The notes under the pieces: model-generated
Seen by the model: the letters and a program-made list of their open reading frames with translations, nothing else
Databases searched by the model: none
Told to the model about the DNA's origin: nothing
Part shown: positions 45,055 through 61,724 of the stretch, one piece after another
Position numbering within the stretch: the stretch's first letter is position 1
Layout of the letters: each line of letters starts with the position of its first letter
Position numbers and translations under genes: made by a program
Origin: an uncultured Candidatus Peribacteria bacterium
GTDB lineage: Bacteria; Patescibacteriota; Gracilibacteria; UBA1369; 2-02-FULL-48-14
Assembly (NCBI GenBank): GCA_964516995.1
Contig: CAZFAV010000004.1
Span: 18,689 to 82,688, forward strand
Direction of reading: 5' to 3'
Length of the DNA: 64,000 bases

Positions 45055-45586
45055 GACGATTTGCGATAGATTGATCGCGAGAATCTAAAATACGTCTCGC
45101 GTTTTCGTAGGGATGATCCACATACTTCATGATGAAAAAAATATCGTTGGAAGCTGTCATGATTTCTAATGTACCAAAGTGCAAAATGCTTTCTAAAATT
45201 CCTTGCTCAATTCCTTTTACATCCTCAATTTGACTCACATTGGTTTCAGAAATTTGCCTATGGAAGAGGTCAATTTGCTCGTGTGAAATAACACGTTGAT
45301 CTGTGACCACAATGATATCGAGTTCATCATTGAGCCAATGCACATAAGTAATGAGACTGATGAAAAGAATGTAGGTGATGAAGAGCAGCATACTGCCCCA
45401 AAAAATCTGGTTGCTGCTGTTCTCCCAGAGGCCACCCAAAACAGCCATCCCCAACAAGAAAGGAATTCCTCCGATGAGCAAAAGTACCAAAGCCGCTTTA
45501 ACATCGGTAATCCAATGTTTGCGGATCAAAAGCTTGATATGCTCGTTTTCTTTTTGTCCGGGAAAGTGTTTAACGTGATTGCTCAT
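45044..45586 (-). CDS. Bacterial PH-domain (YdbT/DUF304-like) membrane protein
   Basis: Two TM helices followed by 'IIVVTDQRVISHEQ...GTLEIMTASNDIFFIMKYVDHP', typical of bPH_2 domains. Confidence 0.55.
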   Translation of the reverse strand: MSNHVKHFPGQKENEHIKLLIRKHWITDVKAALVLLLIGGIPFLLGMAVLGGLWENSSNQIFWGSMLLFITYILFISLITYVHWLNDELDIIVVTDQRVISHEQIDLFHRQISETNVSQIEDVKGIEQGILESILHFGTLEIMTASNDIFFIMKYVDHPYENARRILDSRDQSIANRHAH

Positions 45587-46611
45587 TTACGGAGGGCTTT
45601 GAGAAAGAGTTGTGCGGACTTGGGCCAAGAATACTGCTTCGCGGCGGCTCGTCCTGCCGCGCGGAGTGAGGCAACGGCTTGAGGGTCTTCTAGCTTTTTA
45701 AGCGTAGCAGAAAGTGAGCCTTTAAGAAACAGCGCCGCCCCGTGGGACACTTCACGATTGACGGGCAAATCCTTAACGACAGCGGGCGTCCCTACGGAAA
45801 GTGCTTGAAGCAAAGGAATATTAAAGCCTTCTTGATCTGAAAAATGCAACAGCGCCTTACTAGACTTGAGAGCAGAGTAAAGTTCTTTTTCGGACAGCCT
45901 TCCTAAATGAAGAACTGAGGGATGACTGGGCACGGCAGGATAATAACGTGAACGATGGTGGGGCACACCCACCAGGAGTAAACGACTCTCAGCGTGAGTT
46001 TTTTGATAAAGCACAAATTGCTGCACCAGCTCTGTCACATTTTTTCTAAGATCGTAGCCACCAATGTAAATAAAATCATTTTGATAAGGTTTTTTACTCA
46101 GCCCGGTGGGAATTTCTGGTGCAGCATTGGGCAAGATTTTAGCAGCGGGTATACCAAGTTCATCGTGAGTGGCGTGGGAGACGGTGAAGAGTTGGTCTAC
46201 GTGCACTAAGGCCCTTTTAGCTTGTCTATAGTAAGTGCGTTTGAGTCTGGACCCTTGGTAACGAGGATCATCCCACAAAATGAGGTCGTGCACGGTCATG
46301 GCGCGCAGATGCGAGGAGCGCGCTGGCAAAGGACAGGGGTAAGGGTAATATTCCCAGTCGAGATTGTGACGAGCAAAATAGGCCGGTACTTGAACCCGCT
46401 CCCAGACCCACTTTTTGAGAGCGGGATGAGGAAGCCAAGTTTTAGGGCGAAGCGTGTGCACTTTGAGACCAGGAATTTTCACGGGAGCCGGACTCACCAC
46501 AGTGAGTTCTACTTTCTTAGTAGCAGCCAAGGCTTTGAGTAGTCCTAGAGAATGCTGACCGATGCCGGTATGAGGCTGTGAGAGGAACCAGCCTTGGAAT
46601 CCAAGCTTCAT
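45583..46611 (-). CDS. Glycosyltransferase, GT4/GT-B family
   Basis: C-terminal half 'LLVGVP...ELYSALKSSKALLHFSDQEGFNIPLLQALSVGTPAVV' is a glycosyl-transferase group 1 signature. ATGA-type overlap with the downstream gene. Confidence 0.7.
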   Translation of the reverse strand: MKLGFQGWFLSQPHTGIGQHSLGLLKALAATKKVELTVVSPAPVKIPGLKVHTLRPKTWLPHPALKKWVWERVQVPAYFARHNLDWEYYPYPCPLPARSSHLRAMTVHDLILWDDPRYQGSRLKRTYYRQAKRALVHVDQLFTVSHATHDELGIPAAKILPNAAPEIPTGLSKKPYQNDFIYIGGYDLRKNVTELVQQFVLYQKTHAESRLLLVGVPHHRSRYYPAVPSHPSVLHLGRLSEKELYSALKSSKALLHFSDQEGFNIPLLQALSVGTPAVVKDLPVNREVSHGAALFLKGSLSATLKKLEDPQAVASLRAAGRAAAKQYSWPKSAQLFLKALRK

Positions 46612-47643
46612 TTAAAGGTAAGATAAAAGGAGCCAAGCGATTTTTTCTGTGGCGGTATTGGGGTGGATGCTTTGGGGCCGTTGGGGCAAAGCGAGGAGTT
46701 GTTTGAGGGCAGGCTTAGTTTGGTCTGCAATGGAGAAAAGCGATGATTCTACAGCAGCGATTTGAGCATTGGCCATTTGGTCTCCACGACTGGCGTGTGT
46801 GCCGAGTGGATAAAGCAGGGCAGGAATTTGTACCGCCTCCAATTCGGCAAGAGTGTTGGCTCCAGCACGGGTCAGCGCGAGCGAAGCGAGCGCGTAGAGG
46901 TCGTTCATCCCTTTTTCTACGTAAGGGAATTCTATGTAGTGCTTTTCTCTTTTCACTTTTCCTTTTTTTCCACTGATATGGATCACATCAAAATGCTCCA
47001 GCCATGACTTTTTTTCACGTTCAGTGAGGGCATTGAGTTGCGCAGAGCCACTGCTGCCTCCCATCACTAAGAGCACCGGCCGTGTGCCGGTGAAACCTGT
47101 CATTTTTTGTGCCTTTTTTTTACTTCCATCAAATAAAGAAAGTCGAACTGGATTTCCCACAATTTCTATTTTCTCCTCGTATTTTTCCAACTCCAGGTGA
47201 GCTGTTTCATAAGCCAAAAGAATTTTGCTGGCAAAGCGGGCGCTGAGCTTGGTCGCCAGCCCTGGGATAGCATCCGAATCGTGGATCACTACTGGGATTT
47301 TCCTCATCCAGGCAGCAAATACCACTGGGAAACCCACAAAGCCTCCCTTGCTAAAAACCACCGTGGGCTTTAAGCGCCCTAGTTTAAAATAGGCCTGTAT
47401 TATGCCGAGCGGAATTCGGAAGAGATCCACGAGATTTTGAAGGGAGAAATAACGCCTCAGTTTGCCGGTGCTGATCTCTTCAAAAGGGATTCCGGCTGCG
47501 GTAACAAGAGTCTTTTCAATTCCCTTATGAGAGCCTAGATAGACGAGTTTTGCTTTGGGTTCAAACGCGCGTATAGCGTCCGCTATAGCGAGGTTGGGAA
47601 TGACGTGCCCAGCTGTTCCTCCTCCGGTCAGGAGAATATTCAT
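46612..47643 (-). CDS. murG: UDP-GlcNAc:undecaprenyl-PP-MurNAc-pentapeptide GlcNAc transferase
   Basis: I chose the start at MNILLTGGGTAGHVIPNLAIADA (MurG G-loop 1). Also 'LVMGGSSGSAQLN' and 'RAGANTLAELE'. Confidence 0.85.
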   Translation of the reverse strand: MNILLTGGGTAGHVIPNLAIADAIRAFEPKAKLVYLGSHKGIEKTLVTAAGIPFEEISTGKLRRYFSLQNLVDLFRIPLGIIQAYFKLGRLKPTVVFSKGGFVGFPVVFAAWMRKIPVVIHDSDAIPGLATKLSARFASKILLAYETAHLELEKYEEKIEIVGNPVRLSLFDGSKKKAQKMTGFTGTRPVLLVMGGSSGSAQLNALTEREKKSWLEHFDVIHISGKKGKVKREKHYIEFPYVEKGMNDLYALASLALTRAGANTLAELEAVQIPALLYPLGTHASRGDQMANAQIAAVESSLFSIADQTKPALKQLLALPQRPQSIHPNTATEKIAWLLLSYL

Positions 47644-48802
47644 AAAGGGTCGTGGTTTGAGAGATGTTGAGCAGAATGCCGATGGCAAACAGCGTCATTA
47701 CCATGGAGGAACCTCCGTAACTGATGAACGGCAAGGTGATTCCAGTGATCGGGAACAAGGCTGTGTTCACCATGATATTAACGAAAGCCTGCACCGAAAT
47801 CCAGGTTCCAATCCCTGCAGCAGTGAGCATGGCGAATTTATTGGGGGCGTGACTGGCGATTTGGAAACTACGATAAGCCACTACCGCATAGAGCAGCACA
47901 ATCATGGACATGCGCACAAAGCCCAATTCTTCGGAAGAAGCGGCAAAGATAAAGTCATCCACTGCTTGAGGCAGCCAGAAAGATTTTTGAATTCCTTGAG
48001 TGAGTCCCTTCCCCCAAAACCCTCCGCTGCCAATGGCAATGTTGGCTTGGCGCGTCTGCCAACAATAATCTTCGGTACAATCGCTGGGAGGATTCACAAA
48101 AGCTTCCACTCGCTCTCTTATGTGCTGAGAGCTGGCGAAAATTCCTAAAACCGCCACTGCTACGATCAAAGCTCCCCCGAGCATGTGACTCAGTCGTGCT
48201 CCAGCGAGATAGTAAATAACGACTGCAATGAGAGCAAAAATCATGGAAGATCCGATATCAGGCTGCAAGGCTACGGGCAAAATAATAAGCCCTGCAATGA
48301 TGGCGAACTTAAGAAAACCTTCCTTAAGCTCTCCTATTTTTTCAAAAGAAATCCTTTCGGCAAAAAAGTAACTGAGGAAGAAAATCAGCCCGAGTTTGGC
48401 GATCTCCGAAGGCTGAACGGAGTCAATAAAAGGCAGTGCGGGCAGATTGATCCAGCTCTTGGCAAACGTGTTGTTGCTGTCTCCGGCAATGAGCACATAC
48501 ATGAGCAGTCCAAAACCCGCCGCATAAAAAATGGGCGCTAAGGTTTTCCACACGCGAAAAGGGGTCTTCCAAGCCACCAGCATAGCGGCTAGGCCGAGGC
48601 CTGCACGAACCAAGTGCTTCTTCAAAATGAGGTAACAATCCACGGCCACATTGGAACAGTCGGCGTACTTGAGGTCGGGAGCGGAAATACGGATGGACTT
48701 GGGCACTCCAATAGAAGTGATCATTACCACGCCCACCACGACCAGCGCTAAAACTGCCAGGAGGAGAATCTTATCGTATTTTTGGTTCTTAAATAGCCTC
48801 AC
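47561..48802 (-). CDS. ftsW: SEDS-family peptidoglycan glycosyltransferase (FtsW-type, adjacent to murG)
   Basis: About 10 TM helices with 'LQPDIGS', 'LPQAVDDFIFA' and 'GITLPFISYGGSS' motifs. The C-terminal tail overlaps the murG start by 83 nt. Confidence 0.75.
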   Translation of the reverse strand: MRLFKNQKYDKILLLAVLALVVVGVVMITSIGVPKSIRISAPDLKYADCSNVAVDCYLILKKHLVRAGLGLAAMLVAWKTPFRVWKTLAPIFYAAGFGLLMYVLIAGDSNNTFAKSWINLPALPFIDSVQPSEIAKLGLIFFLSYFFAERISFEKIGELKEGFLKFAIIAGLIILPVALQPDIGSSMIFALIAVVIYYLAGARLSHMLGGALIVAVAVLGIFASSQHIRERVEAFVNPPSDCTEDYCWQTRQANIAIGSGGFWGKGLTQGIQKSFWLPQAVDDFIFAASSEELGFVRMSMIVLLYAVVAYRSFQIASHAPNKFAMLTAAGIGTWISVQAFVNIMVNTALFPITGITLPFISYGGSSMVMTLFAIGILLNISQTTTLYEYSPDRRRNSWARHSQPRYSGRYTRV

Positions 48803-48869
48803 TGGCCTTGGGATGCATTAAAGTGAGGACAGTGTAGCGGAAGAGGGTAGCTGTTGGAAGTTGAAGCGT

Positions 48870-51800
48870 TTACTGAAGAGGGATTCTCAAGATGCCCATC
48901 GTACCCATTTCGGGATGATGCCTCTGCTCATCAAAGCAAATTTTTGCTTTACCTTGATAGACTACAGCTCCATGTCTTCCTTCTGGCGCCAACTGAACCA
49001 TCATTGCTCTACTTCCGTAGTGACCTTTAGCTCTACTAGCGATCTGCTCGATTTCAGAATTAGTAGGGATGGTTAATCCTTCGCTTAGCATTAAACTCGT
49101 ATTATTTTCTATAAATGTTTTACCTTGTGTGTTTCTGTGCATTCTACAATCTGCAATTTTTAAACATTGATCTTCCACCCAAAAAATTGTTTCTCCATCA
49201 CTACCCTTTTCTATGTACTCCAAGCTATTGATAAAAGATTGGCCGGTGAGTGGATTCTCTCTTCCCAGTGCTTGGCCAATTTCTTCCAAAGAAATGTCTG
49301 CTTCGGTTCCAGCTGGGTACTGTTTTCCGTAAGATCTAATGAGACCTTCCACGCGAGGATCTTTCGAGAGATTCACTTCTACTATTCGTGGATATTCTAT
49401 GCCACCCATCGCTGCCAATTCATGAGCTTTTTCTGGATCTATAGTCAAGCACTCCATTATCCAAGCTATTTTTGATTTTTCCGGAGTTTTTTTCACTTCA
49501 TCTATAGCAGCTTTAGCATCTTCAGTCGCAAATCTATATCTAAGAGCTAGAGCAGCTAATACCATCCAAGTTTTACCCTTAAATCTGTTTGGCTTGTTTT
49601 CAATAATTCTTTTTAAGAGAGGTCTCAATTTTGTGAATTCTATTTTCTCAGTAGCTTTTTGCCTAAACACTCCTACCCTCCTTTCTTTTCCTAAAAAGAT
49701 ATCTATGTAAAAAAGTTCCGGGGCAGTTTCTAAAATGGTGGCTAGTATTCTTTCATCTTCTGTCTCTACGCACTTCTCTAAACAAAAAAGTACGAGCTCC
49801 TCAAGAATGCAATCTGTAGCTCCTTGAAATTCAGGTTTACATAGTATTATAGAGATATTCTTAAGAATATCTCTATAAATAGTCTTCGCTATTTGTTCTC
49901 CAAAAATCATCTCAAGATCTAAGGCATAAAGATATCGTATATTTCGGGTAATTAGCTCAAGCACTACTTCAGAAGCTTCATCTACCAATCCAGCTAAAAG
50001 TAATGCCCTAACTAGAGTAAATTGAGCTTTAACGTTTCCTTTATCGGCTTCCACTGCTCTTCTTAAAGATGTAAGCGCTTCTGGCAATTCACCTGTTTTT
50101 GATTTTAATCCGGCATATTTTGTCCATGCCTCAGAGGCTAATTCCACATTTTCTGACATTCTTCCAACTATTCTATACCGCTTCATTGCTTCCTCATCCT
50201 CACCTAAAACTTCCGCCGATACACCTGCCCCATATTGATTACCCATAACCGTAGGATCTGCTTGAACTCCTTCCATAAATAACTTCAGTGCCTCTCGAAA
50301 ATCTTCATGAGCTTCCGCACTTCTTAAAAATACCGTTCCTTGCCTCAACCTTTGTTTAGCAACATTTCCAAGACTATCTTCAGTTAGATCTATTAACCTT
50401 TCAAGTAAAGCGTTGCCCTGTTGAACTTCTTTTTGGATATTTGCGTTTCCTCTTTCGAGCGTGGAGTCTATTTGCCTTAATTGAGACAAAATAGCTGCTT
50501 TTGAAATAGCAATTTGTGTTGCTATGGCATCCAGTGCCTCTAGCCCTAAATTGACTCCACGCTCCAAAACCCCATTTACTTGTGAGAACCCGTAATTCAT
50601 TGCTTCTATGAACCCTGCTGCTAGCTCTTCTAAATTTACTAAATGCTGATTAGTACCAACTATCCCAACTGCAATGTCTGATAAAAGGTGATTGCCTCTT
50701 TCCCGCTGTGCTATTTCATGCTCTTGACCGACTACTAATATTTCTCCCAATACAGTGTGTCTTCTTAGCTCTCCTATTCCTATCTCTCGCTGATCTATGG
50801 CTTTGTCTCCTTGGATAAGTAAGTCAATTAAACTGAAACTCCTTTCTAGTGCAGAACCATCTACACGAGCTTCTCTATACCTTTTTTTAACTTCATAACT
50901 TATTCCTTCCACAACTAAGTTATTATTACTCATGTCTATGAGTAAATCCTCTTCAATGGTTGACTGACGGGCTTGATCACACACATTTAAAAGTGCATAA
51001 GCATCTTGAATGAAACTTTCAACATCCTGATTAGGGAACTCCCCCACAACTTTTTCCAACCTTCTTAGTTGTTGAACTGCACCGTCTCTTGTTGCTCTTT
51101 TAGCCAGTCTACTTGGATGGTCTACTAGGGTGAGTATCTCGCGACCCTCTCTTTTTAAAGTTGCGTCTGCGATTTTATTTTCAATTACACCCTCAATAAA
51201 TCTTTTGGCCGTAGGTGATGCGAGCCTCGTGTCCAGTAATAACTCTAAATCCCCGCTTGCATCTTCATTTAGTAAGCCATTTTGATGTGCTGAAAGAATT
51301 TGCATGAAACGCGTATTAGTGCGGATGAACTCTCTAGGTGTTTCTTTAGTATACCGAGGTCCTTGTGCCTCTCTGGCTTGTCTCGCTAAAGCGCTGCCAG
51401 AAGAAACTACCTCCCTCCCTACTGCACGAACAGCAGATTCCACCTCATGGACTGCATGGGTTGTGTGGTCTATCCGTCTACCTAAATCATCAAACCCTCC
51501 GGCAGTAAGTTTGGCCAAACTTCTTGTTTCCCCTATGAGCCCATTAAAACCACCTTGTGCAATCCTCGCGAGTACCCTTGTCTCTTCTAATAAACCTTCG
51601 CCTCTCTGGTTTAAAGCACCCATTTGAAAAGCAGCTTCTTTTAAAACTCTCTGCGTTTCGTATGCTTTTTTGTCGAAGTCTTCCCTTCTTACTACCGTAC
51701 TTCCTCCATGCAACCCTTTTAGAGCTGTCACGAGTTCTCTCTGTAAAACTAAAGTGTCTCCATGTCTTTGTGCTTGTTCCTTCCTCGCTCTATGCAGTTC

Positions 51801-51905
51801 ACTTACAATCCTTCCATCTGGTGTACGACTCAAGCTATAAGAAGGTGTCCCATAAAACACGCTTTCGAAGAATCGATCGCTTTGAACATCTGTACTTCGA
51901 GCCAT
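48870..51905 (-). CDS. Giant hypothetical protein G3 (1011 aa; TPR-like central region)
   Basis: Uninterrupted ORF with no signal peptide or TM. Short tandem 'ETR-x-LA-x4-GGF-x2-L' repeat at residues ~108-140. TPR-like helices around residues 520-650. The 3' two-thirds are AT-rich. No enzymatic motif recognised. Confidence 0.75.
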   Translation of the reverse strand: MARSTDVQSDRFFESVFYGTPSYSLSRTPDGRIVSELHRARKEQAQRHGDTLVLQRELVTALKGLHGGSTVVRREDFDKKAYETQRVLKEAAFQMGALNQRGEGLLEETRVLARIAQGGFNGLIGETRSLAKLTAGGFDDLGRRIDHTTHAVHEVESAVRAVGREVVSSGSALARQAREAQGPRYTKETPREFIRTNTRFMQILSAHQNGLLNEDASGDLELLLDTRLASPTAKRFIEGVIENKIADATLKREGREILTLVDHPSRLAKRATRDGAVQQLRRLEKVVGEFPNQDVESFIQDAYALLNVCDQARQSTIEEDLLIDMSNNNLVVEGISYEVKKRYREARVDGSALERSFSLIDLLIQGDKAIDQREIGIGELRRHTVLGEILVVGQEHEIAQRERGNHLLSDIAVGIVGTNQHLVNLEELAAGFIEAMNYGFSQVNGVLERGVNLGLEALDAIATQIAISKAAILSQLRQIDSTLERGNANIQKEVQQGNALLERLIDLTEDSLGNVAKQRLRQGTVFLRSAEAHEDFREALKLFMEGVQADPTVMGNQYGAGVSAEVLGEDEEAMKRYRIVGRMSENVELASEAWTKYAGLKSKTGELPEALTSLRRAVEADKGNVKAQFTLVRALLLAGLVDEASEVVLELITRNIRYLYALDLEMIFGEQIAKTIYRDILKNISIILCKPEFQGATDCILEELVLFCLEKCVETEDERILATILETAPELFYIDIFLGKERRVGVFRQKATEKIEFTKLRPLLKRIIENKPNRFKGKTWMVLAALALRYRFATEDAKAAIDEVKKTPEKSKIAWIMECLTIDPEKAHELAAMGGIEYPRIVEVNLSKDPRVEGLIRSYGKQYPAGTEADISLEEIGQALGRENPLTGQSFINSLEYIEKGSDGETIFWVEDQCLKIADCRMHRNTQGKTFIENNTSLMLSEGLTIPTNSEIEQIASRAKGHYGSRAMMVQLAPEGRHGAVVYQGKAKICFDEQRHHPEMGTMGILRIPLQ

Positions 51906-51931
51906 GGTTCTAAAGAGTAGTCAGATCGCTT

Positions 51932-51960
51932 AAATTACCCTCGAATGTGTGAGTTGTCAA
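51932..51960 (-). promoter_or_regulatory. Candidate promoter for G3
   Basis: On the minus strand, TTGACA (51955-51960), a 17-nt spacer, then TAATTT (51932-51937). The ATG lies at 51905. Confidence 0.45.
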
Positions 51961-52024
51961 TCGTGCTGCGTTTTAAATTGTTGTCAGGGTTTAGCAACTC
52001 TAATTTAAACCTCCTCTCAGTAAA

Positions 52025-54418
52025 CTACGTAAAAATGACATCGTAGTTTGTACCAAAGGTGAGACATTGGTTCACTTGCGCTAATGCTATGCGGAAAGCA
52101 TTCGCTTGAGTACTTGCCGCAACATTTGTCCTCAAAGGTCCAGTGGTGACCCAACCACTTACTAAATCGTCCATTAATTTTACATTCTGCGCCACCTCTC
52201 CTCTGGTTGGGGTTCTTGCTGGTGCAATACCTAAAAGACGATTGCACTGATCACGAGCGATGGCCTTATCTGCCGGGTTGATTGCGGCTGCACCTGTACC
52301 ATAAATAATACCAAAATTCGCTCCAAAAAGACCTGATGAGAATTCATTGAGGACATCGCTCATTTCTTGACTAGTTCTTGCACCGGTAATTCTTCCAAAC
52401 GTATCCTGATAGAGATCCCTCTTTTCCGGTCCATTGGAAATCAGGGCCACCAAGTCGACAGGAGGAGTAACCGTGGTGTCGTAGAGTGCATTGAGAACCG
52501 CTGTTAAATCGGCGGCCATTGCAGCGTGAGCAGTCGCTTCTGTGGAACCTGCCGTAAGCCGTGCTGGGTTAAAGCGCGTAATAAAGTTGGTGATAAAGTT
52601 GGCCAAACGAGGTCCCGTGTTTACCGTATCGTTACCCGTAAGTTGTTGAACGAGTCTCTTGTAACCCTCTCGTTTCGTAGTATCCACGCAAGCAGCTTGT
52701 ATTTCTGCGCGTTGCAAGAGAGGTCCAAAATGAAGCGTGAAGTCACCGGTGCGGTAGCTGCGGAGGAATTGATCTTGATCTGCTGGTTTTTCGAGACCCA
52801 AAACGATTTCTCCAAAGCTTTTCATCTTTCCGAGACCGAGTTCCATGGTCTTTGGGTCGGAATGGTAGAGTGCTTCCACTAAACTACCGTAAGCTCCCCC
52901 TGCTGTGCGTTGAGGAACTCCGGCGCGAGCAGGAGCTGCTGCGGCCAAGTTGTTGAAGACGGTCACCAAGAAAGCATTGAGCTGATCGAAGTGAGTTTGA
53001 GCCTCACCCGTATAGGCCGTTCTTTCTCCCAGTTTAGAGTCGGTGGTCCCAGGAGCAATACCTCCTAAATCTAGAACTGTGCCCGGTGCTGCTGGAGAAT
53101 GGGTGCGCAAAATTTCGTAAATTTCGATGGGCAAAGTGTCTGGACGCAGCTTGGTCGTCGCTTTGAGATTGAACAGATTTTTAAGCAAAGTTTTGATTTC
53201 CTCTCTTCCCTCTGGAGTCACCAAATCATTTTCTAAACGACCAGGATTGAGAAGTTGTGCAAAAGTCGCTCGAAAGGCGTCGGCATTAAAGTTTTCTAAG
53301 AAAGCTTCACGCGTCGTACCACTTTGCACTTGAGCGTCTATGCTGGCTCCAAATTCTGTGTACTTGATGTCTACCTTGGTCCTATCTTGTGGGTAAAGGC
53401 GGTCCAAAGTTCCGACTACTGGAGGAACGGCGGCGGTGTTGGACGCGGTTAAGAGCGTCATGGCGTTGGCGTAGATTTGAGCAAATTGCAAATGATTGGC
53501 ATCGTCTTGAGGATTGCGAAGTCCGTGACGATGACCAGCGTCTACAATGTATCGATCGGGATGCATAGGATCGGGGACAATGTGTGCCCCCCAACGGCGC
53601 ATGATTTCTGTGGTCATGGTTTCTACTTCATCTCGGGTGAGGTCATCGTCCAGATTGAAAAGAATGCTGCATTCTTTTTTAATGGCGGCTCGACCCGCAG
53701 GACTGCCCATGCTATGGCGGAACATTGCTGGATTAGAGAGCCGTCGGAGGCGTGTAGTGAGGGCAAAGCCGTTTCCAAAACCACGGCAAAGATTTTCTAC
53801 ATCGTGGTGAAAGTGATGTGTCCGGTGATCCACAAAACTGAGCACCTGTCCTCCCAGATTGTCCCAAGTGGGAGTTAAAGGAGTGACGGGGTGTTCTGGG
53901 ATTCCAAAAAGCCAGCCAGCTAAACGAGCCACCGCTTTTTTTGTGTAGGATGAGCGAAATAAATCCCAATCCGCGAGATCAGCAAAATGACCCCAAGCAT
54001 GCTCTATATCGTGTTGAGAGAGGTTGCCCTCCACTCGTTTATCGTTGAGTTCTCCCAAGCTTTCTATCGCTTCTAACAAGTCTCCTTTATCCCCTGGAAT
54101 GAGTCGTCTTAAGAAGGATTTTTTTTCTCCTTTGACGTGTCCATGTCCATGCCCATGTTCTCCTTCTTTTTTTGAGGAATCACCGTCTCCTTTGGGATGA
54201 TCTGGCTTAGGATGACCTCCACCCTTTTTATCGGCTTCTGCAGGATGATCTTCTTTTGTACCTAAAGCTGCATTGGTCACATTGCTAAAGGCTTGTCCAA
54301 ATTGACCGAGGGCGGCCATGACTGAAGGGTCTGCCCACGGATTAACCGAGGGGGCAGAAGGGGCTCCTGAGGGAGCGCCTGTAGGTCCGTGGTTGGGGTG
54401 ATGAGGTCCTGCGACCAT
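52025..54418 (-). CDS. Giant hypothetical protein G2 (797 aa; His-rich N-terminus, internally repetitive)
   Basis: Uninterrupted GC-rich ORF. N-terminal 'KEDHPAEADKKGGGHPKPDHPKGDGDSSKKEGEHGHGHGH'. In frame with G1, 9 nt after its TAA. No recognised domain. Confidence 0.75.
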   Translation of the reverse strand: MVAGPHHPNHGPTGAPSGAPSAPSVNPWADPSVMAALGQFGQAFSNVTNAALGTKEDHPAEADKKGGGHPKPDHPKGDGDSSKKEGEHGHGHGHVKGEKKSFLRRLIPGDKGDLLEAIESLGELNDKRVEGNLSQHDIEHAWGHFADLADWDLFRSSYTKKAVARLAGWLFGIPEHPVTPLTPTWDNLGGQVLSFVDHRTHHFHHDVENLCRGFGNGFALTTRLRRLSNPAMFRHSMGSPAGRAAIKKECSILFNLDDDLTRDEVETMTTEIMRRWGAHIVPDPMHPDRYIVDAGHRHGLRNPQDDANHLQFAQIYANAMTLLTASNTAAVPPVVGTLDRLYPQDRTKVDIKYTEFGASIDAQVQSGTTREAFLENFNADAFRATFAQLLNPGRLENDLVTPEGREEIKTLLKNLFNLKATTKLRPDTLPIEIYEILRTHSPAAPGTVLDLGGIAPGTTDSKLGERTAYTGEAQTHFDQLNAFLVTVFNNLAAAAPARAGVPQRTAGGAYGSLVEALYHSDPKTMELGLGKMKSFGEIVLGLEKPADQDQFLRSYRTGDFTLHFGPLLQRAEIQAACVDTTKREGYKRLVQQLTGNDTVNTGPRLANFITNFITRFNPARLTAGSTEATAHAAMAADLTAVLNALYDTTVTPPVDLVALISNGPEKRDLYQDTFGRITGARTSQEMSDVLNEFSSGLFGANFGIIYGTGAAAINPADKAIARDQCNRLLGIAPARTPTRGEVAQNVKLMDDLVSGWVTTGPLRTNVAASTQANAFRIALAQVNQCLTFGTNYDVIFT

Positions 54419-54427
54419 AGAAATAGG

Positions 54428-57400
54428 TTAAGCGGCGTGTTTAGCGTGATCTTCCTTGGGATGATCTTCCTTGGGATGATCTTCTTTGGGATGATCTTCT
54501 TTGGGATGATCTTCTTTTGATTTTCCTCCAGCTACTACCGTGAGGGCTGGCTTCCCCTTCTTAGCAGCGGACTTTCCTCTTTCTACTGTCGCTTTTCCAT
54601 CAGCACCTCCAAAGAGATCGGGCACTAAGTTACGAGACCAATATCGTCCGTGTTCGCTTCCAGCGAGAGTCACTCCCACAAAAGTAGGAACTGCGCCTAA
54701 AGCACCCCAAACTAAACCAGCAGCTCCTGTGGGAACAGCGGCTACGGTGCGGAGGGCTTTATCGGCGGTCCATTGGAGCGCATTTTTAGCTCGGCGTAGT
54801 CCGTTGCCCATCCACGTAAAAGGACTGGTCCATCCCTTAGCTTCTTTCATTTCTGAATAGTTCGGCTCATCAAAGTAATTCCAGGCGTTAACGGCTCCTG
54901 CGCTCATTTCGGTGAGCGGTTCTCCTAAACCAGCAGCAACTCCATTTAGAGCGCCTGCCACTAAGAGTCCACCTCCTTTGGCCACTGCTGGAATCGATTT
55001 GATCCCTGCCACTCCTACATCGATTCCCTTACCAATCAATTTGAGTGCGCCGTAGCTCACGACTGCAGCGGTTCCCGCTACGGCTACCCCAGCTCCAATG
55101 GCCACATTACGCACTAAGTTAGGAAATCGACTAGGCGCAGCGGGGGCTGCTGGTCTTGCGGGTGCCGCAGTTCCGGCAGGTGCATTGGTGCCGTTCCACC
55201 AGTTTCTTACACGATTGAATTGATTTCTAAAAAAACCAGGGCTTGCTCGAGTAAGGTCCCGAGCAGTTTGCCATCCTTGTTGCAAATCGTTTCTCACCCA
55301 ACGCCCAGCCCTTTTCACAGGACTCGTGCGGTCGGCTGTTTGAAGGCGAACAATTTCATCGTAAATATCACCATAAAATCCAGGCTGAATTTCTTCTGCT
55401 TGTCCAGGATTCGCCCCATCTAGTGCGGCGCGGAGGTCATTCACGATTTGGTCACGAGTCATTCCCTCGGCTTGCATTTCGGTCACCATGGGGATGAGAT
55501 TGTTGGCTGTAATGTATCGTCCCAAAGCTGCTCGGACTTCGGCTTGCTCGCGGCGAGCTTGAAGCGTTCCTACTAGGCGGTCCGCTCCAGCATTGCCTGC
55601 GTTGACCACTGCACGGCCTATTCCCCTTAGACGATCTCCATCTGTAGTTTCTGTAGAACCGCGGCGTACACGTTGAATGGTGCCCGTGTCCTCGTCCACT
55701 ACAAAACTAACTCGATCTGCTGGTCTCAAATGCGCAGCTTCCTCAGGAGGCGTGCCGTCTGGAATTTGTGCCGTTCCAGTATTGAGGCTCTGCGCCACCT
55801 GTTGTAAAACGTCGTTGTCTGCTACTCGTACATGAGTTTCGTTTCCATCTTCATTCAAAACCACGTTTCCTTCATCATCTAAGTTTCGGCGATACACTTC
55901 ACCCTGATACAGGAGGACGTTCTCAGGTTCACCTGCTAAGTCCACACCTACTGTTCCATTGACTCCTGTTCTGGTGGTTTCCGCTGCGGCGCGTTCCCTC
56001 ACTACTTCGCCAATTTGTCCTTCTACAGCGGCGCGAGCTCCCAGGGCTGAGCGTGCGGCACCCGTCAAGGCGCCCCAAGCTCCTGAAACTGCTCCAGTCA
56101 CTGCAACCTGAGCCTGTTGAAGACGAGTTGGGGGGGCTGGCCTATTGTGTCGAGCTAAACGCCCTCGGGCTGTTCCTCTTTGGGTTTCTAGCTCACCGAT
56201 GCGAGTTCGGATTTCAGTGATCGTTGCTAAGGCGGAAGTGATCGTAGCCAAGGCCTGTGCCAAATGGTCTCTTCTTTCTGTGTAACTACGAACCAGTCCA
56301 GCTCTATTAAAAGTTTCTGTCGGGAGGCCTGCTATGGTTTGTTCTAAGTGTGTTTGAGTTTGTGTGGCTGCGGTTTGTAAATGGGTGAGATAAGCTTCTA
56401 TTTCACCGAGTTCTTCACCTGTGGCAGTCAAAGTGGCGTCGTCGGTTTGCTCATTGATGGCTGTGTTTAAAGCAGCTAATCTTTGAGTATTTCCTGCTAA
56501 GGCTAGATCAGAGCCCCTTGTCGCTATATTTTCGAAAGAATCTTCTTCTGCTTGTGTGAGGCCTCTGCGTGCTTGCATCTCACCTTGTAAGACTCCTTCT
56601 TGGACAGAGAGATGAGCAGATACCTGTGTTCTTAATTGAGTAAACCCATCAATCGCTTCCCTCAAACCTGCGGGCCGGATTAGATTATTCAAACTTGTGA
56701 AATGAGGTTCTGAAAGGTTGATCCCTCGTTTGGTAGCCATCTCTTGGATGCGCCCCCCCACTGTTTCTAAGGCTGTTAAAGCCTTAAGCAGATCGTTGAT
56801 AAGAACCCTCGTAGCCGCTTCTGGATTCCCTGTGCTATTACTCGTAGTGATTCCCGTCTGATAACCTGCAACAAAGACTCTGGCACTCGCTGTTGTGGCA
56901 CATTGTTTTGACAAATGCAGGAGGCTCCATCCAGACTCTGTATCGATTTCTTCGGCTACACGGCCCCATTCTGTGTTTGCTTCTTGGACAAAGCTGTTTA
57001 TATCGGCCAGTTCATCTAAGCGTCTCGAAGCCTGATCTCGGAGTGTAGTGAGTTGGCTTTTCAGTGCGGCGCGTCCTTCTTCCCTGCCGATCAAAAGATC
57101 AGAGAAAGGAGTTTTTGTGAGATCTATTTTTTCGCTTCTAGCTTGTTCCCCTAAGGCCTGCTCGTAACGGTCAAATTCGTGCAAGGTGTGCAAGTACTCA
57201 TTGAGTTCTTCATGAACTGCCCTGGTGCCTGCATGGTTATTCTGTGCTTTATGAAGCTCGTTAGAAAACCTGCGTGCTGCGGTGTCCGCGGTAGCAGAGC
57301 TAGCTGCTGCCTGAAGGGTTTCTTGGTGCCGAGGAAGAGATCCTAAATTCTTTCTATTGCCTCCCCACCTAGAGACGAACGCTGTTTCGGCTCTTTGTCG

Positions 57401-57844
57401 ATCTTCGGCTACTTTTCTCTCTGCATCAACACGGGCTGTCTCGGCTTCTTCTTTGGCTTTATGCGTTGCAGCGGCTCTACGGAGTTGCTCTCTCATTACT
57501 TCGATCCATGCATCGGGCACCGTGCGATCGTTTCCTCCATCGGAAAGAATGAGCTGGAAGAGGGGGTGATTGCCGTTTCTGTTGATTTGCACGTGACCGT
57601 GGTCGCGACGAAGAGGCGCATTGAGCACATGACGAACCTCGTCGTATTCCTGTGGATTAGGTGCGCGCTCTGTACCGCGGTCAATGATCGTGAGTCGGCC
57701 AGCTTCTATGCGAAAAGCACGAGGTCCTAAATGCTCCCTTAAATTTCCTACGGCATTCACATTTCCATCTGCGTCCACTTGCAGCCTTTGGGCTACTTCG
57801 GGGAGGAGACTTCGATCAAAGCTTTGATCTGTGTTTGATGCCAT
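54428..57844 (-). CDS. Giant hypothetical protein G1 (1138 aa; coiled-coil-rich, C-terminal Gly/Ala-rich hydrophobic region, KEDHP x5 tail)
   Basis: Uninterrupted GC-rich ORF behind a near-consensus promoter. Long Ala/Glu/Arg/Gln-rich helical stretches. Hydrophobic Gly/Ala segments encoded at 54662-55108. No recognised domain. Confidence 0.8.
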   Translation of the reverse strand: MASNTDQSFDRSLLPEVAQRLQVDADGNVNAVGNLREHLGPRAFRIEAGRLTIIDRGTERAPNPQEYDEVRHVLNAPLRRDHGHVQINRNGNHPLFQLILSDGGNDRTVPDAWIEVMREQLRRAAATHKAKEEAETARVDAERKVAEDRQRAETAFVSRWGGNRKNLGSLPRHQETLQAAASSATADTAARRFSNELHKAQNNHAGTRAVHEELNEYLHTLHEFDRYEQALGEQARSEKIDLTKTPFSDLLIGREEGRAALKSQLTTLRDQASRRLDELADINSFVQEANTEWGRVAEEIDTESGWSLLHLSKQCATTASARVFVAGYQTGITTSNSTGNPEAATRVLINDLLKALTALETVGGRIQEMATKRGINLSEPHFTSLNNLIRPAGLREAIDGFTQLRTQVSAHLSVQEGVLQGEMQARRGLTQAEEDSFENIATRGSDLALAGNTQRLAALNTAINEQTDDATLTATGEELGEIEAYLTHLQTAATQTQTHLEQTIAGLPTETFNRAGLVRSYTERRDHLAQALATITSALATITEIRTRIGELETQRGTARGRLARHNRPAPPTRLQQAQVAVTGAVSGAWGALTGAARSALGARAAVEGQIGEVVRERAAAETTRTGVNGTVGVDLAGEPENVLLYQGEVYRRNLDDEGNVVLNEDGNETHVRVADNDVLQQVAQSLNTGTAQIPDGTPPEEAAHLRPADRVSFVVDEDTGTIQRVRRGSTETTDGDRLRGIGRAVVNAGNAGADRLVGTLQARREQAEVRAALGRYITANNLIPMVTEMQAEGMTRDQIVNDLRAALDGANPGQAEEIQPGFYGDIYDEIVRLQTADRTSPVKRAGRWVRNDLQQGWQTARDLTRASPGFFRNQFNRVRNWWNGTNAPAGTAAPARPAAPAAPSRFPNLVRNVAIGAGVAVAGTAAVVSYGALKLIGKGIDVGVAGIKSIPAVAKGGGLLVAGALNGVAAGLGEPLTEMSAGAVNAWNYFDEPNYSEMKEAKGWTSPFTWMGNGLRRAKNALQWTADKALRTVAAVPTGAAGLVWGALGAVPTFVGVTLAGSEHGRYWSRNLVPDLFGGADGKATVERGKSAAKKGKPALTVVAGGKSKEDHPKEDHPKEDHPKEDHPKEDHAKHAA
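54446..54520 (-). repeat. 15-bp tandem repeat x5 encoding (KEDHP)n at the G1 C-terminus
   Basis: Plus-strand units are gtgatcttccttggg / atgatcttccttggg / atgatcttctttggg / atgatcttctttggg / atgatcttcttttga at 54446-54520. Confidence 0.9.
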
Positions 57845-57873
57845 ACATTGATCTTAAAAATCAATATTACATT

Positions 57874-57902
57874 ATTATAACGTAGATCTGTTTTTTAGTC
57901 AA
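57874..57902 (-). promoter_or_regulatory. Near-consensus sigma70-type promoter for G1
   Basis: On the minus strand, TTGACT (57897-57902), a 17-nt spacer, then TATAAT (57874-57879). The ATG lies at 57844. An inverted repeat ATTGAT-N7-ATCAAT (57847-57865) lies between the -10 and the start codon. Confidence 0.6.
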
Positions 57903-57966
57903 TCCCTTCTGAAATTTAATATGCGTTTGAGCTATTCAAAAATTTAAAAATCCTTACTATGAGGCC

Positions 57967-58440
57967 ATGGACCGCAAAGAAGCCACAAGACTCGACCGCG
58001 TTTGGATGTTTTTTGCCCCGATTTTTGTCGGACTTTTAGCTTTGGACCAGGTCACCAAATGGTGGGCAGTGAATCATGTGGCTCCAGAAGCGAATGTGGA
58101 TTTTGGCTTTTCTCTGGTTTACAACCGAGTGCTTTTGTTCAACATTTCTCTGCCTCAGTGGGCCATTTATATTCTCACTTTTTGTATTTTAGCTCTGGGC
58201 GTTTATCTGGTACTCAAAAATAAGATGTGGGAACAAAAAATTCACCTGGTGGGTTTTGCCCTCATTTTGGCGGGTGCCATTGGTAACTTGATCGACCGAC
58301 TGCATTATGGAGCGGTGGTGGATTTTATCAAAGTCTATTGGTGGCCCAATTTCAACCTGGCAGACGTATTTATTGTGAGCGCCGTGGTGATTTTGGCTTG
58401 GGACATTTTGTTCCACGAAAACGCGCTCGATGATCTTTGA
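57967..58440 (+). CDS. lspA: Lipoprotein signal peptidase (signal peptidase II)
   Basis: LDQVTKWWAV, GAIGNLIDRLHYGAVVDFI and NLADVFI motifs. 157 aa, 4 TM helices. Confidence 0.85.
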   Translation: MDRKEATRLDRVWMFFAPIFVGLLALDQVTKWWAVNHVAPEANVDFGFSLVYNRVLLFNISLPQWAIYILTFCILALGVYLVLKNKMWEQKIHLVGFALILAGAIGNLIDRLHYGAVVDFIKVYWWPNFNLADVFIVSAVVILAWDILFHENALDDL

Positions 58441-58449
58441 GTGGGCGTG

Positions 58450-59262
58450 CTACCGAGCGATGTCCTTGGACTCGTGCGTGAGTTTGGTCATGAGTTCCTC
58501 GGGGCCGGTTTTGCCCGTGATGAGTTCGTGCATGGGAAAGATTTGATTGAGAAACCAAATTTCGCCCGAAAGCACGTGGGGAACGTGCATGGCTTTGGCT
58601 TCCTCCAAAAAGAGGCTGGTTTTGCCGTAGACTGCGTCTAGTGCCAACTGCGTGGTCTTCCAGAAACGGAAAGGAATGAGCGTCGATTGACGGTCTGCGC
58701 TGCTGGCTGCGGTAGCATTGATGATGAGATCGGGCGCGCCATTCCAGCTGTCTAGATGCTCGATCCATTCCAGCTCCATTTCTTGTGCAAAGGCCTTGGC
58801 GCGCTCGGGTGTACGGTTCCAAATGGCCACGCGGGCACCCTCTTTTTTGAGCCCGTAAGCCGCCGCGCGTGCAGCCCCTCCCGCCCCCAAAATGAGCACA
58901 GTTTTATCTTTGAGCTCACTCATTTTGTTCTTGATGGCTCCTACTGCTCCCATCCAATCCGTATTGTAGCCATAAAGTTTACCTTCGCGGTTCACGATCA
59001 CATTCACGGCGTTGACTGCCTTCACGTCTTCACTGGCTTCGTCCAAGTAGGCAATGGAAGGAGTTTTATAAGGCATTGTGGCCACAATACCACTGAGTTC
59101 TCCGTTTTTGAGTTTAGCCATGACGCCCTCAAATTCTTCGGGCGGTACATCATGGGTCTCAAAGTGAGCTTCTACTCCTTCTTCTTCAAAGGCCCCGTTC
59201 ATGACGGGAGTCGTTAAACAGAAGGACAGTGGATGTCCGACAATCCAGTACTGTTTGATCAT
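58450..59262 (-). CDS. aroE: Shikimate dehydrogenase
   Basis: GHPLSFCLTTPVMNGAF, GIVATMPYK, GYNTDWMG and LILGAGGAARAAAYGL (Rossmann) motifs. Confidence 0.85.
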   Translation of the reverse strand: MIKQYWIVGHPLSFCLTTPVMNGAFEEEGVEAHFETHDVPPEEFEGVMAKLKNGELSGIVATMPYKTPSIAYLDEASEDVKAVNAVNVIVNREGKLYGYNTDWMGAVGAIKNKMSELKDKTVLILGAGGAARAAAYGLKKEGARVAIWNRTPERAKAFAQEMELEWIEHLDSWNGAPDLIINATAASSADRQSTLIPFRFWKTTQLALDAVYGKTSLFLEEAKAMHVPHVLSGEIWFLNQIFPMHELITGKTGPEELMTKLTHESKDIAR

Positions 59263-60017
59263 TTCTTACTGTTGGATTTCATGAGTTCACCAGCAGCCTC
59301 TACTGCTCGAAGTACTTCGATAGGTACCATCCAAACAGTGGTGTTGGATGCATCAGAAGAAAGATCATCGATGGCGTCCAGAGTGCGAAGGTGAAGAGCG
59401 CCAGGTTGTGCGCTGAGCATACGTGCGGCTTTGCTCAAGTTTTCGGCAGCGATCACTTCTCCTTCAGCCTTAATGATGGTGGCTTCGCGTTCACGTTGAG
59501 CTTCTGCCGCCTTACCAATCGTACGCTTCATATCCTCTGGGATGTTGATATCCTTGAGTTCTACATTCACTACATTCACTCCCCACACTTTAATCATTTC
59601 TACTACTGCATTGCGGATTTTTTCAGACTGTTGTTCACGTTGAGAAAGCAGTTCGTTTAAGGTCACTTCTCCCACCACATTACGCATGGTGGTCTGAGCG
59701 AGTTGGCTGGTGGCGTAATAGAAATTTTCGATGTTCAAAACGGCCTTGCTGGCATCATCTACTTTGAAGAACAAAACCGCTGTCACTGCCACAGAAATAT
59801 TGTCTTTGGTGAGACAGTCTTGGCTGGGCACTTCCACAGTACGAAGGCGAAGGTCTACTTTGGTCATGGATTGGAAAATAGGCAAAACCAAGCGCCAGCC
59901 TGGATCCACCATCTTTGTGAATTTTCCTAAAGTAAATTTCACTCCACGTTCGTACTGATTGACCTGCCGGATGCTGATGAGCAAAACGAAGAGGACGAGG
60001 AAAATCAAGAAGGGCAT
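59259..60017 (-). CDS. SPFH/band-7 (stomatin/slipin-like) membrane protein
   Basis: N-terminal TM, 'VNQYERGVKFTLGKF', 'TKDNISVAVTAVLFFKV', and a C-terminal coiled coil 'AEAQREREATIIKAEGE'. ATGA overlap with aroE. Confidence 0.8.
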   Translation of the reverse strand: MPFLIFLVLFVLLISIRQVNQYERGVKFTLGKFTKMVDPGWRLVLPIFQSMTKVDLRLRTVEVPSQDCLTKDNISVAVTAVLFFKVDDASKAVLNIENFYYATSQLAQTTMRNVVGEVTLNELLSQREQQSEKIRNAVVEMIKVWGVNVVNVELKDINIPEDMKRTIGKAAEAQREREATIIKAEGEVIAAENLSKAARMLSAQPGALHLRTLDAIDDLSSDASNTTVWMVPIEVLRAVEAAGELMKSNSKK

Positions 60018-60040
60018 AGTGTTTTAGAAAAGGGGTAGCC

Positions 60041-61015: not shown

Positions 61016-61062
61016 GGAATACGCGGTTTAGTATGGCATACTGAGGAAAATTTGCAATTCTT

Positions 61063-61686: not shown

Positions 61687-61724
61687 GGGTGGTTTTTTTT
61701 GCCCTTTTCTGGCAGACTATCCGC

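Follow-up and report, generated by a model that had tools for sequence, protein, structure and literature searches.

What is the role of three giant genes that lie between lspA and the ftsW-murG cell-wall genes in an uncultured Candidatus Peribacteria bacterium? The window, a stretch of 64,000 nucleotides (GenBank assembly GCA_964516995.1, contig CAZFAV010000004.1, positions 18,689 to 82,688), holds at this place three consecutive open reading frames (ORFs) on the minus strand, G1, G2 and G3, of 1138, 797 and 1011 aa. A first-pass annotation made from the sequence alone saw no recognisable domains in them and proposed that they encode large secreted or host-membrane-inserting effectors. Re-reading of the ORFs reproduced their coordinates and lengths exactly, and profile matches identified the flanking genes, so that the reported position between lspA and ftsW-murG stands (Table 1). 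We have compared the locus with about 110 related loci (designated L###; P#### denotes family members found independently of FtsW). Our findings show that G1 and G2 are halves of one modular protein that occurs whole in relatives, and that this family holds a fixed chromosomal position. From an abstract perspective, the system may be best understood as a lineage-specific, membrane-anchored and non-enzymatic scaffold, possibly tied to the envelope or to division, to which we assign a probability of roughly 0.4.

When did these genes enter the chromosome? With FtsW as a bait, species-representative genomes returned 23 matches, the closest at 91% identity; all came from metagenome-assembled genomes of Candidatus Peribacteria, Peregrinibacteria or Gracilibacteria except for one weak match in Vampirovibrio (32%), which agrees with the earlier assignment to an organism like those in the Candidate Phyla Radiation (CPR). 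The proposed insertion between lspA and ftsW is borne out by 37 outgroup contigs (FtsW ~50% identical), in which lspA(-) and ftsW(+) are adjacent and divergent and the gap, with a median of 75 nt, is empty. Peribacteria-type loci (FtsW >= 62%), by contrast, all carry one to three large genes in this gap, which we refer to as the slot: a single gene of 625-1472 aa, a pair (880+876, 836+741, 799+1564 or 897+1272 aa) or a trio. Two kinds of module, a membrane module M and helical modules R, described below, link the slot genes of about 29 loci in iterative jackhmmer and HMM searches. A small, more distant subclade has one Gly/Ala-rich ORF of ~215 aa in the slot; homology of these ORFs to M was considered and not demonstrated (HMM E = 0.1, hhalign probability 3%).

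The family can also be reached without FtsW. A HMMER search with the G2 profile across 1.84 billion representative proteins gave 22 proteins at E <= 1e-3, none with a known domain except one, whose match is probably spurious, and in all five cases for which the context was fetched (P0018, P0015, P0012, P0010 and P0020) the gene sits between lspA and ftsW. The position of these independently found members implies that one class-level lineage has a single-copy set of positional orthologs. M, R modules and slot position occur together in the window locus and in L006, L007, L011, L013, L014, L109, L110 and L113. Word-indexed homologue searches with the window proteins returned almost only self-clusters, scanning genome and metagenome collections for patterns from the G2 alignment gave no match, and in the literature we found no description of a family that combines this anchor with an R array.

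How are G1 and G2 related to each other? Single polypeptides that combine M with the R array are found in L014 (1422 aa), L007 (1105 aa) and P0015 (1354 aa), and G2 is homologous to the C-terminal part of such fused relatives, behind the membrane module. The fused forms imply that G1 and G2 are halves of one protein that act together. Where the halves are separate, the gap measures 8-24 nt in nine pairs, and in L113 it is 105 nt with the called start, or 9 nt if an in-frame ATG further upstream, spotted by visual inspection, is taken instead; seven of the ten pairs are in frame, these cases not being independent of one another. At the G1/G2 junction of the window there is no Shine-Dalgarno sequence, and its layout suggests translational coupling as well as a fission point of a once-single gene. 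Stop-codon read-through or recoding was considered as a means of joining G1 to G2 and is ruled out by extra in-frame stops in the gaps of L006 and L008 and by the three out-of-frame pairs. His-rich segments (5-18% His) flank the break on both sides and are absent from the linkers of fused forms.

G2 consists of a disordered His/Lys/Pro-rich head, one Gly-rich amphipathic helix (aa 33-51) and four tandem all-alpha R modules of ~125 aa (about 105-145 aa), of which relatives have 3-9. The internal repetition noticed at first pass thus resolves into modules that the family profile recovers, though they are invisible to BLAST. AlphaFold2 run on G2 with 24 sequences (predicted local distance difference test, pLDDT, 79.4; predicted template modelling score, pTM, 0.41) yields an all-alpha model whose modules are confident separately; with 3 sequences the pLDDT was 41.6, and we used the 24-sequence model. 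A Foldseek search of this model in PDB and BFVD gave generic alpha-solenoid rows only (best E 0.018, TM-score <= 0.13). When 24 family members are compared, G357, P456, F535 and F560 alone come close to being invariant, and no polar residue is conserved. This paucity of invariant residues, together with the variable number of modules, argues for a structural, non-enzymatic protein. Consistently, neither G1 nor G2 has anything above threshold in Pfam, NCBIfam, PHROGs or PADLOC, and PDB searches by sequence and by profile were empty for both, as well as for the G2 family, the pair of G1 and its L006 counterpart, and module M. Sub-domains, the 24 G2 relatives and 20 slot proteins of other loci, run through the domain libraries, gave only tetratricopeptide repeats (TPR) and one spurious kinase-TPR protein, and in these libraries G1-G3 and the family showed neither an enzyme motif nor an effector domain of any kind (nuclease, NTPase, protease, kinase or other).

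G1 begins with a conserved N-terminal domain, which is followed by a helical, partly coiled-coil arm and a second beta-rich region (aa ~630-760). A linker rich in Pro and Ala then leads to module M, and the tail is charged and His-rich. G1 is collinear with a 1266-aa protein of L006 at 32% identity, the N-terminus being conserved. The long helices that had been taken for coiled coil are so in part, because heptad periodicity exceeds that of shuffles at aa 187-304 and 509-560 but these regions comprise just 14% of residues; the similarity claimed between segments of G1 is likewise modest, the regions that host them aligning at z = 4.2 relative to shuffles. A repeat of the N-terminal domain at aa ~680-745 was also considered and is not significant against shuffles. 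Hydropathy locates the hydrophobic Gly/Ala end of the protein, correctly recognised before, at aa ~907-1064. This is module M, whose segments surround a conserved aromatic/basic stretch (WNY..P...KGWTSPFTW in G1; sPF..G..WNYP..KGW..PF.W in the family). A profile hidden Markov model of M matches G1 at E 4e-51 and proteins of L002, L004, L006, L007, L011, L013, L014, L020, L109, L110 and L113 at E 1e-20 to 1e-60, the matches falling in the first gene or the N-terminal half of the slot proteins.

A C-terminal KKAA, KHAA, RQAA or DLAA is common in slot proteins encoded by a first or a single gene and is seen in G1 (54431-54442) and in slot proteins of L002, L004, L008, L016, L021, L014 and L025. 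C-terminal Ala-Ala resembles the ssrA-like recognition tags of ClpXP or of tail-specific proteases. If such a tag were real, it would point to regulated proteolysis, and it would bear on the side of the membrane at which the G1 tail lies.

In the third gene product, G3, a conserved N-terminal region (RFFESLFYGTP...TPDGRIV) is combined with TPR repeats and with ~200 C-terminal residues that have a gene of their own in relatives (L003 and L007). The statement that the locus lacks recognisable domains holds for G1 and G2 but not for G3, which contains a TPR stretch (aa 592-656) as its sole match. Pfam TPR_19 scores 30.9 bits relative to a cut-off of 25 (3.5e-7, aa 605-651), other Pfam TPR models remain just under their own cut-offs, and the TPR-like helices suspected earlier are matched by designed and consensus TPR proteins in PDB as well. 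The remaining ~880 aa have no match in library, PDB or profile searches, among them PDB searches with the N-terminal family of G3 and with its C-terminus, and the N-terminal similarity proposed between G1 and G3 vanishes when compared with shuffles (z = -0.2). Among the loci examined, only L003, L007 and L024 have relatives of G3. Synteny of the trio, or of G2-G3 at the least, extends to L003 and L007; the L024 gene is split and inverted; and L002 has the same class of G1/G2 and no G3. G3 also shows the lowest GC content at third codon positions (GC3) of the 32 window ORFs (0.292), a GC content of 0.406 and a negative codon-usage score. Given its restriction to few loci, the split and inversion in L024, its absence from L002, its GC3 of 0.29 and its lack of differences from a sister strain (below), G3 has the look of an accessory that came later and is moved about by recombination. 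G1 and G2 have a low GC3 too (0.40-0.42) and high GC at first and second codon positions (GC1/GC2), the latter because the proteins are rich in Ala, Gly and Arg; the anomalous composition ascribed to the locus is hence real in GC3 and codon usage for G3 and in low GC3 for G1 and G2. Public records list G1 and G2 as 'hypothetical protein' and G3 as 'TPR repeat protein', with shorter starts than those used here; N-terminal conservation in relatives supports the long starts at 54418 (G2) and 51905 (G3).

How might the slot genes be expressed? The near-consensus promoter reported upstream of G1 is a sigma-70-like site with 11 of 12 matching positions, the -10 box of which ends 29 nt before the G1 ATG. 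An equivalent promoter (9-11 of 12) is kept at the same relative position in 16/16 Peribacteria-type loci, with a spacer of 17 nt in 15 of them and 16 nt in one. Between the -10 box and the G1 start lies a 6-bp inverted repeat, ATTGAT-N7-ATCAAT (57847-57865, minus strand), which may be an operator or a 5' hairpin, or may have arisen by chance. The candidate promoter of G3 fared less well: its -35 box is perfect (TTGACA), but its -10 box is poor and the site failed a promoter scan. In the G2-G3 spacer (51990-52016, minus strand) a GGAGG just past the G2 stop is followed 12 nt on by a TTG-initiated ORF of 20 codons; Shine-Dalgarno sequences are absent from most genes here, which makes this GGAGG unusual.

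The slot genes are co-oriented with ftsW and lie 35-112 nt upstream of it, and no terminator-like site was found on the coding strand from the G1 promoter through to ftsW. Immediately upstream of the ftsW GTG there is a further promoter-like element, for which an alignment of 12 loci gives the consensus CTTCC(C/A)A-17/18-GCTA(C/A)ACT at 20-30 nt from ftsW. It is probably ftsW's own promoter, kept downstream of the inserted genes, and it may represent a lineage-typical promoter unlike the sigma-70 consensus. Together, the slot promoter and the ftsW element imply that the new genes went between lspA and the ftsW promoter and brought a promoter of their own. Transcription may read through from the slot genes into ftsW but need not do so.

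On which side of the membrane do the large arms of these proteins lie? By hydropathy there is no hydrophobic 19-mer before aa 900 in G1, anywhere in G2 or before aa 630 in G3, and the N-termini of all three are conserved and polar, in keeping with the reported lack of an N-terminal signal peptide. Secretion, sortase and S-layer homology (SLH) motifs were not detected in G1-G3, no secretion genes were found adjoining the locus, and the Cys content of the three proteins is 0.1-0.9%. Membrane-protein insertion is such that a signal-less N-terminal arm of 900 aa should stay in the cytoplasm. Since the G1 arm has no signal, and since the free G2, homologous to the part that follows M, also lacks an export signal, the parsimonious reading would have both arms in the cytoplasm and M as a hairpin or re-entrant anchor. 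The charges of M do not decide for this topology. In 12 sequences, the part of M enclosed by its outermost hydrophobic segments contains 177 Lys/Arg versus 42 Asp/Glu, these segments being 74-128 aa apart, and what follows the last of them is slightly acidic; with this pattern, three transmembrane helices and an outside C-terminus fit the positive-inside rule as well as the all-cytoplasmic model does. Three transmembrane helices in the fused forms would leave the array extracellular. Lys/Arg are depleted in the tails of G1 and the heads of G2. Also possible is a four-helix model in which the Gly-rich helix of G2 (aa 33-51) would supply the fourth helix; the counterpart of this helix is transmembrane-like in L006 and L014.

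How rapidly does the locus change? Relative to the window, L006 is 91% identical in FtsW, 82% in MurG and 73% in GT1, and 29% in G1 and 24% in G2; for L002 the values are 86%, 75% and 70% in the same flanks, 59% in G1 (tail only) and 54% in G2. L002 is therefore farther than L006 by its flanks, yet its G2 is far closer, and the G2 of L006 groups with those of L003 and L029. This discordance implies at least two deep allele classes at the slot, which do not follow the flanking phylogeny. Differences are also uneven over a short distance. Between window positions 44428-64000 and the 99.5%-identical strain of L005, G2 carries 39 differences (16 per kb), G1 26, murG 11, most flanking genes 1-3 and G3 none, although the flank rate predicts ~8 for it (P about 2e-4), which points to recombination tracts of different origin within 10 kb. 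In G2, 28 of these changes are synonymous and 11 non-synonymous (ratio of non-synonymous to synonymous polymorphism, pN/pS, 0.12), with synonymous polymorphism (pS) ~4x that of the flanks; G2 is under purifying selection between these two strains. For G1, the same two strains give 7 synonymous and 19 non-synonymous changes and a pN/pS of 0.88 (Fisher test relative to the flanks, p = 4e-4). Eight of the G1 replacements cluster at aa 115-136, in an Ala/Glu/Arg-rich linker beside the segment that is deleted in L006. Clustering in a low-complexity linker argues for low constraint combined with recombination, and we do not claim positive selection.

Hypervariation of the type caused by diversity-generating retroelements was considered and ruled out: repeat pairs in the 64-kb window involve G1-G3 only via a 15-nt tandem, and no reverse transcriptase was seen among the annotated neighbours. 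Checks for ORF decay showed intact reading frames, purifying selection on G2 and homologues with conserved N-termini, and checks for housekeeping homology gave no confident match for G1 and G2 and just TPR for G3; the first-pass annotation had named decay and housekeeping homology as findings that would speak against it.

The surroundings of the slot are stable, with the order band7-aroE-lspA, slot, ftsW-murG-GT1-...-miaB syntenic across the group. GT1 is followed by two small minus-strand genes (44578-45586) encoding a 180-aa weak bPH_2 protein and a 158-aa LemA-like protein; they trail ftsW-murG-GT1 in all related loci, so the conserved block reaches well past the slot. L006 (8497-9672, minus strand), L029 (2680-3864, minus strand) and L024 (6389-7522, plus strand) each have an ATPase gene of the AAA_14/DUF4143 type inserted between their slot genes and ftsW. 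The copies of L006 and L029 are 91% identical and their FtsW 80%; the ATPase gene therefore appears to have been mobile recently, and the slot tolerates insertions. Rfam and tRNA scans of the 64-kb window were empty, and no phage genes, tRNA or integrase were found near the locus. At a distance from it, the plus strand holds an array of eight paralogous ORFs of ~530-560 aa (6447-23243), with one Cys-poor ORF of 470 aa interspersed. The eight contain 5-7.6% Cys, and CxxC-type motifs recur in them, but they have neither a match in Pfam nor an obvious signal peptide; a VirD4/TraG-like type IV coupling protein (23300-25558, plus strand) follows directly. The array may correspond to the Cys-rich clusters of Ca. 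Peribacter riflensis, which unlike the array here are described as mostly having signal peptides (PMC4736985). A 452-aa protein (26920-28278, minus strand) has two C-terminal SLH domains (E 4e-28), which suggests a Gram-positive-like wall with an SLH-anchored surface layer.

Table 1. Coordinates in the window of the slot genes, their parts and their flanks
Feature	Coordinates	Strand	Remarks
lspA (Peptidase_A8)	57967..58440	+	divergent upstream boundary of the slot
Sigma-70-like promoter	57874..57902	-	TTGACT-17-TATAAT, 11/12, in the lspA-G1 intergenic region
G1	54428..57844	-	1138 aa, anchor protein (proposed)
G1 arm, best-conserved part, aa 9-75	57620..57820	-	FD.S.LP..QRL..D.DGN.N..GNL...IIDRGTER, alignment with L006
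G1 aa 187-304	56933..57286	-	heptad periodicity above shuffles; holds one copy of a weak internal duplication
Membrane module M, G1 aa 901-1069	54638..55144	-	Gly/Ala-rich hydrophobic segments ~907-938, 950-977, 1030-1064
15-nt tandem repeat	54447..54517	-	4.7 copies, 98% identity; encodes (KEDHP)n in the G1 C-terminal tail
G1/G2 junction	54419..54430	-	TAA stop, 9 nt, G2 ATG in the same frame
G2	52025..54418	-	797 aa, array protein (proposed)
G2 head, aa 1-101	54116..54418	-	low-confidence, disordered, His-rich (HGHGHGH, KEDHP-like); Lys/Arg-poor before the helix
G2 module R1, aa 173-275	53594..53902	-	family profile
G2 module R2, aa 300-445	53084..53521	-	best-conserved module, profile seed
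G2 module R3, aa 473-619	52562..53002	-	family profile
G2 module R4, aa 627-749	52172..52540	-	family profile
G3	48870..51905	-	1011 aa, accessory TPR protein (proposed)
G3 TPR region, aa ~530-660	49926..50318	-	Pfam TPR_19; consensus TPR structures E 3e-12 (aa 534-655)
Promoter-like element	48831..48860	-	CTTCCA-18-TACACT, 28 nt upstream of the ftsW GTG
ftsW	47561..48802	-	downstream boundary of the slot; 79-91% identical in closest relatives
murG	46612..47688	-	flank downstream of ftsW
GT1 glycosyltransferase	45583..46611	-	flank downstream of murG

How might such a system work? We envision G1-G3 as the local version of a Peribacteria-only protein system that would have resided in the gap between lspA and ftsW since the origin of the clade. 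Its core would be one modular structural protein, composed of an anchor (a variable N-terminal arm plus M) and an array of 3-9 R modules. In the window, the gene would have been split in the linker, leaving G1 as the anchor and G2 as a four-module array on adjacent cistrons 9 nt apart, and the two products would re-associate at the membrane. Conceivably, they make contact where the Gly-rich N-terminal helix of G2 packs on Gly-zipper helices of G1 and where the His-rich ends meet at the split. G3 would act as an optional TPR adaptor in a few lineages, probably as a more recent acquisition. The large arms would lie on the cytoplasmic face of the cell membrane, and the strong conserved promoter might provide for an abundant scaffold or spacer, the length of which would be set by the number of modules. 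A role in envelope growth or division beside FtsW-MurG is the most specific guess that we can offer, and it is weakly supported.

A number of findings weigh against the scaffold. Besides the charges of M, these include the tempo of change: the locus evolves far faster than its flanks, a pattern that fits genes for interaction or conflict better than it fits housekeeping scaffolds, and the pN/pS of G1 points the same way. Region-wide synteny and ftsW's own element render guilt by association with ftsW weak, so that the adjacency may reflect low rearrangement rather than function, and Foldseek returned no structural analogue from PDB or BFVD for a specific type of scaffold. Could the proteins then act at the surface or on a host, as first proposed? 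The role as secreted or host-membrane-inserting effectors is weakened by the lack of an export signal and of adjoining secretion genes; the family is moreover present in every Peribacteria-type locus examined (~29) rather than on an island peculiar to this genome, and in relatives G2 is fused behind a membrane module. Rapid mosaic evolution is the one feature that still fits interaction or an arms race. It can also be accommodated by a surface or host-contact apparatus, in which M would anchor or export the array, and the array or the G1 arm, or both, would form an external fibre of variable length that touches host cells or the cell wall and diversifies under host or phage pressure. Divergence that is extreme and discordant with the flanks, mosaicism even between 99.5%-identical strains (G2 with its ~4x raised pS beside an unchanged G3), the high pN/pS of G1, module numbers from 3 to 9, a charge distribution compatible with three transmembrane helices and an outside C-terminus, and the Lys/Arg-depleted G1 tails and G2 heads would all suit such a fibre, as would the habits of Peribacteria, inferred symbionts whose strain variation is concentrated in large envelope proteins (PMC4736985). 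It is nevertheless difficult to reconcile with three proteins devoid of signal peptides, with 900 aa of G1 ahead of the first hydrophobic segment, with a free G2 that has no export signal despite its homology to the post-membrane part of fused forms, and with the absence of secretion, sortase or SLH motifs and of secretion genes next to the locus. The exported proteins known from Peribacter combine Cys-richness with signal peptides, unlike G1-G3, and the eight clustered changes of G1 fall beside a segment dispensed with in L006, which speaks for low constraint rather than selection. We consider the surface apparatus unlikely on balance.

About equally unlikely, in our estimate, is a cytoplasmic membrane-associated structure unrelated to the cell wall, such as a tether for the nucleoid or an organelle, a coat that shapes the membrane or a His-rich metal buffer, whose place beside ftsW would be accidental. 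It would agree with the synteny of the whole region, which makes adjacency little informative, with a strong and separate slot promoter next to an ftsW that keeps its own element, with the His-rich low-complexity ends and with the membrane-organising neighbours (Band 7/SPFH and LemA-like). Nothing specific favours a tether, coat or metal buffer, however; the His-rich segments, confined to the split ends and missing from fused forms, look like linker or association features, and no terminator separates the slot genes from ftsW. A conflict system in a core-gene hotspot (anti-phage defence, abortive infection or a toxin), with a TPR sensor and a membrane effector, strikes us as very improbable. 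A fast and mosaic locus between conserved core genes, the patchy G3 and a mobile AAA_14/DUF4143 gene in the same slot of L006, L029 and L024 would be in its favour, but the best PADLOC match is BnzB at E 0.07 for G1, with none for G2 and G3, no effector domain (nuclease, NTPase, protease, kinase) and no conserved polar residues are seen, and all ~29 loci contain the same diverging family instead of changing cargo. A remnant of a phage or mobile element, for instance of a tape-measure-like protein, or decaying ORFs are most improbable and largely refuted. G1-G3 are long and helical with Gly-rich hydrophobic segments, as tape-measure proteins are, weak tape-measure rows appear in BFVD (E 0.7-2) and the codon usage of G3 is deviant. 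Those Foldseek rows are not significant (TM-score <= 0.13), though, and no PHROGs match is better than E 0.06; the neighbours are cellular, with no phage gene, tRNA or integrase close by, the position is stable over a class-level clade, the frames are intact and G2 is under purifying selection.

If the scaffold were only a low-constraint structural protein, our finding would be modest and its value would lie mainly in a defined new family. More radical versions are conceivable, and we regard them as improbable: M might be a self-contained display or export device that places a signal-less array, perhaps with the His-rich loop, on the surface as a hypervariable, Peribacteria-specific contact fibre whose length is adjusted by its 3-9 modules, or, less radically, the two-part scaffold might be a CPR-specific organiser of FtsW-MurG. 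The former would amount to a new way for a CPR symbiont to build and diversify a host-contact surface without Sec signals, whereas in the latter case the scaffold would replace division proteins that are missing from reduced genomes. The CPR constitutes a large share of bacterial diversity, and its cell biology is almost unknown. The locus offers a tractable handle on envelope organisation or cell contact in this group, being present throughout the Peribacteria-type loci examined, modular, equipped with a conserved strong promoter-like site and located beside the SEDS polymerase gene ftsW. Natural fusion and fission furnish built-in evidence of which proteins work together. The slot also exemplifies gene birth in an intergenic gap, from empty to one gene, a split pair and a trio, and it combines variation in module number with discordant allele classes at one chromosomal position.

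Which known systems does the locus resemble? EzrA, a division regulator of Firmicutes, has a single N-terminal transmembrane helix and ~100-aa spectrin-like three-helix bundles and associates with the divisome. Like EzrA, the G1/G2 pair is proposed to be membrane-anchored, cytoplasmic and non-enzymatic, with all-alpha tandem helical repeats; it differs in that the anchor of G1 is a C-terminal Gly/Ala module of several segments (mid-protein in fused forms) and in that the R modules measure ~125 aa with ~8 short helices in the model, and Pfam and NCBIfam yielded no EzrA match for G1 or G2, and Foldseek with the G2 model neither EzrA nor spectrin. HubP/FimV, PodJ and TipN are likewise large, lineage-restricted, fast-evolving and non-enzymatic hubs with a membrane anchor, coiled-coil or variable repeats and acidic or low-complexity stretches, and FimV and PodJ have TPR-like parts. 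G1-G3 share no homology with them and have no LysM or other peptidoglycan-binding domain, and here the TPR part is the separate and optional G3. As for TPR adaptors (Pfam clan TPR), aa ~530-660 of G3 are bona fide TPR and the rest of the protein matches nothing.

Among proteins of the envelope and of host contact, Ebh of Staphylococcus aureus is a giant wall-associated protein with ~126-aa helical repeats, a C-terminal membrane anchor, a signal peptide and FIVAR/GA modules. All-alpha repeats of ~125 aa in variable number, a membrane-spanning region and a charged tail are features that recur in our family; the signal peptide and Pfam-recognised FIVAR/GA modules are absent from G1 and G2, and the repeats of Ebh precede the anchor whereas the array here follows it. 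Chlamydial Inc proteins, type III secreted and characterised by a bilobed hydrophobic domain whose loop is short, are comparable as fast-evolving orphans with paired hydrophobic segments and coiled coil in an organism that depends on other cells. In M, however, ~75-130 aa separate the outer segments, which enclose a conserved basic/aromatic stretch; the locus has no secretion system linked to it, and the slot family is a single-copy positional ortholog rather than an expanded effector repertoire. EzrA, the landmark scaffolds and Ebh may thus serve as the closest functional analogies, which share neither sequence nor a detectable fold with G1 and G2 and whose defining features, where tested, were not found in them. 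Closer to home, Ca. Peribacter riflensis is reported to encode large, Cys-rich, signal-peptide-bearing and strain-variable exported proteins (PMC4736985); lacking both signal peptide and Cys-richness, G1-G3 are a distinct class. CPR-enriched protein families are mostly unannotated and membrane-associated (PMC6744442), and because CPR families are poorly annotated in general, an orphan family as such is unsurprising. What is new in this case is a defined architecture, the fusion and fission of its halves, its fixed position and its tempo of change.

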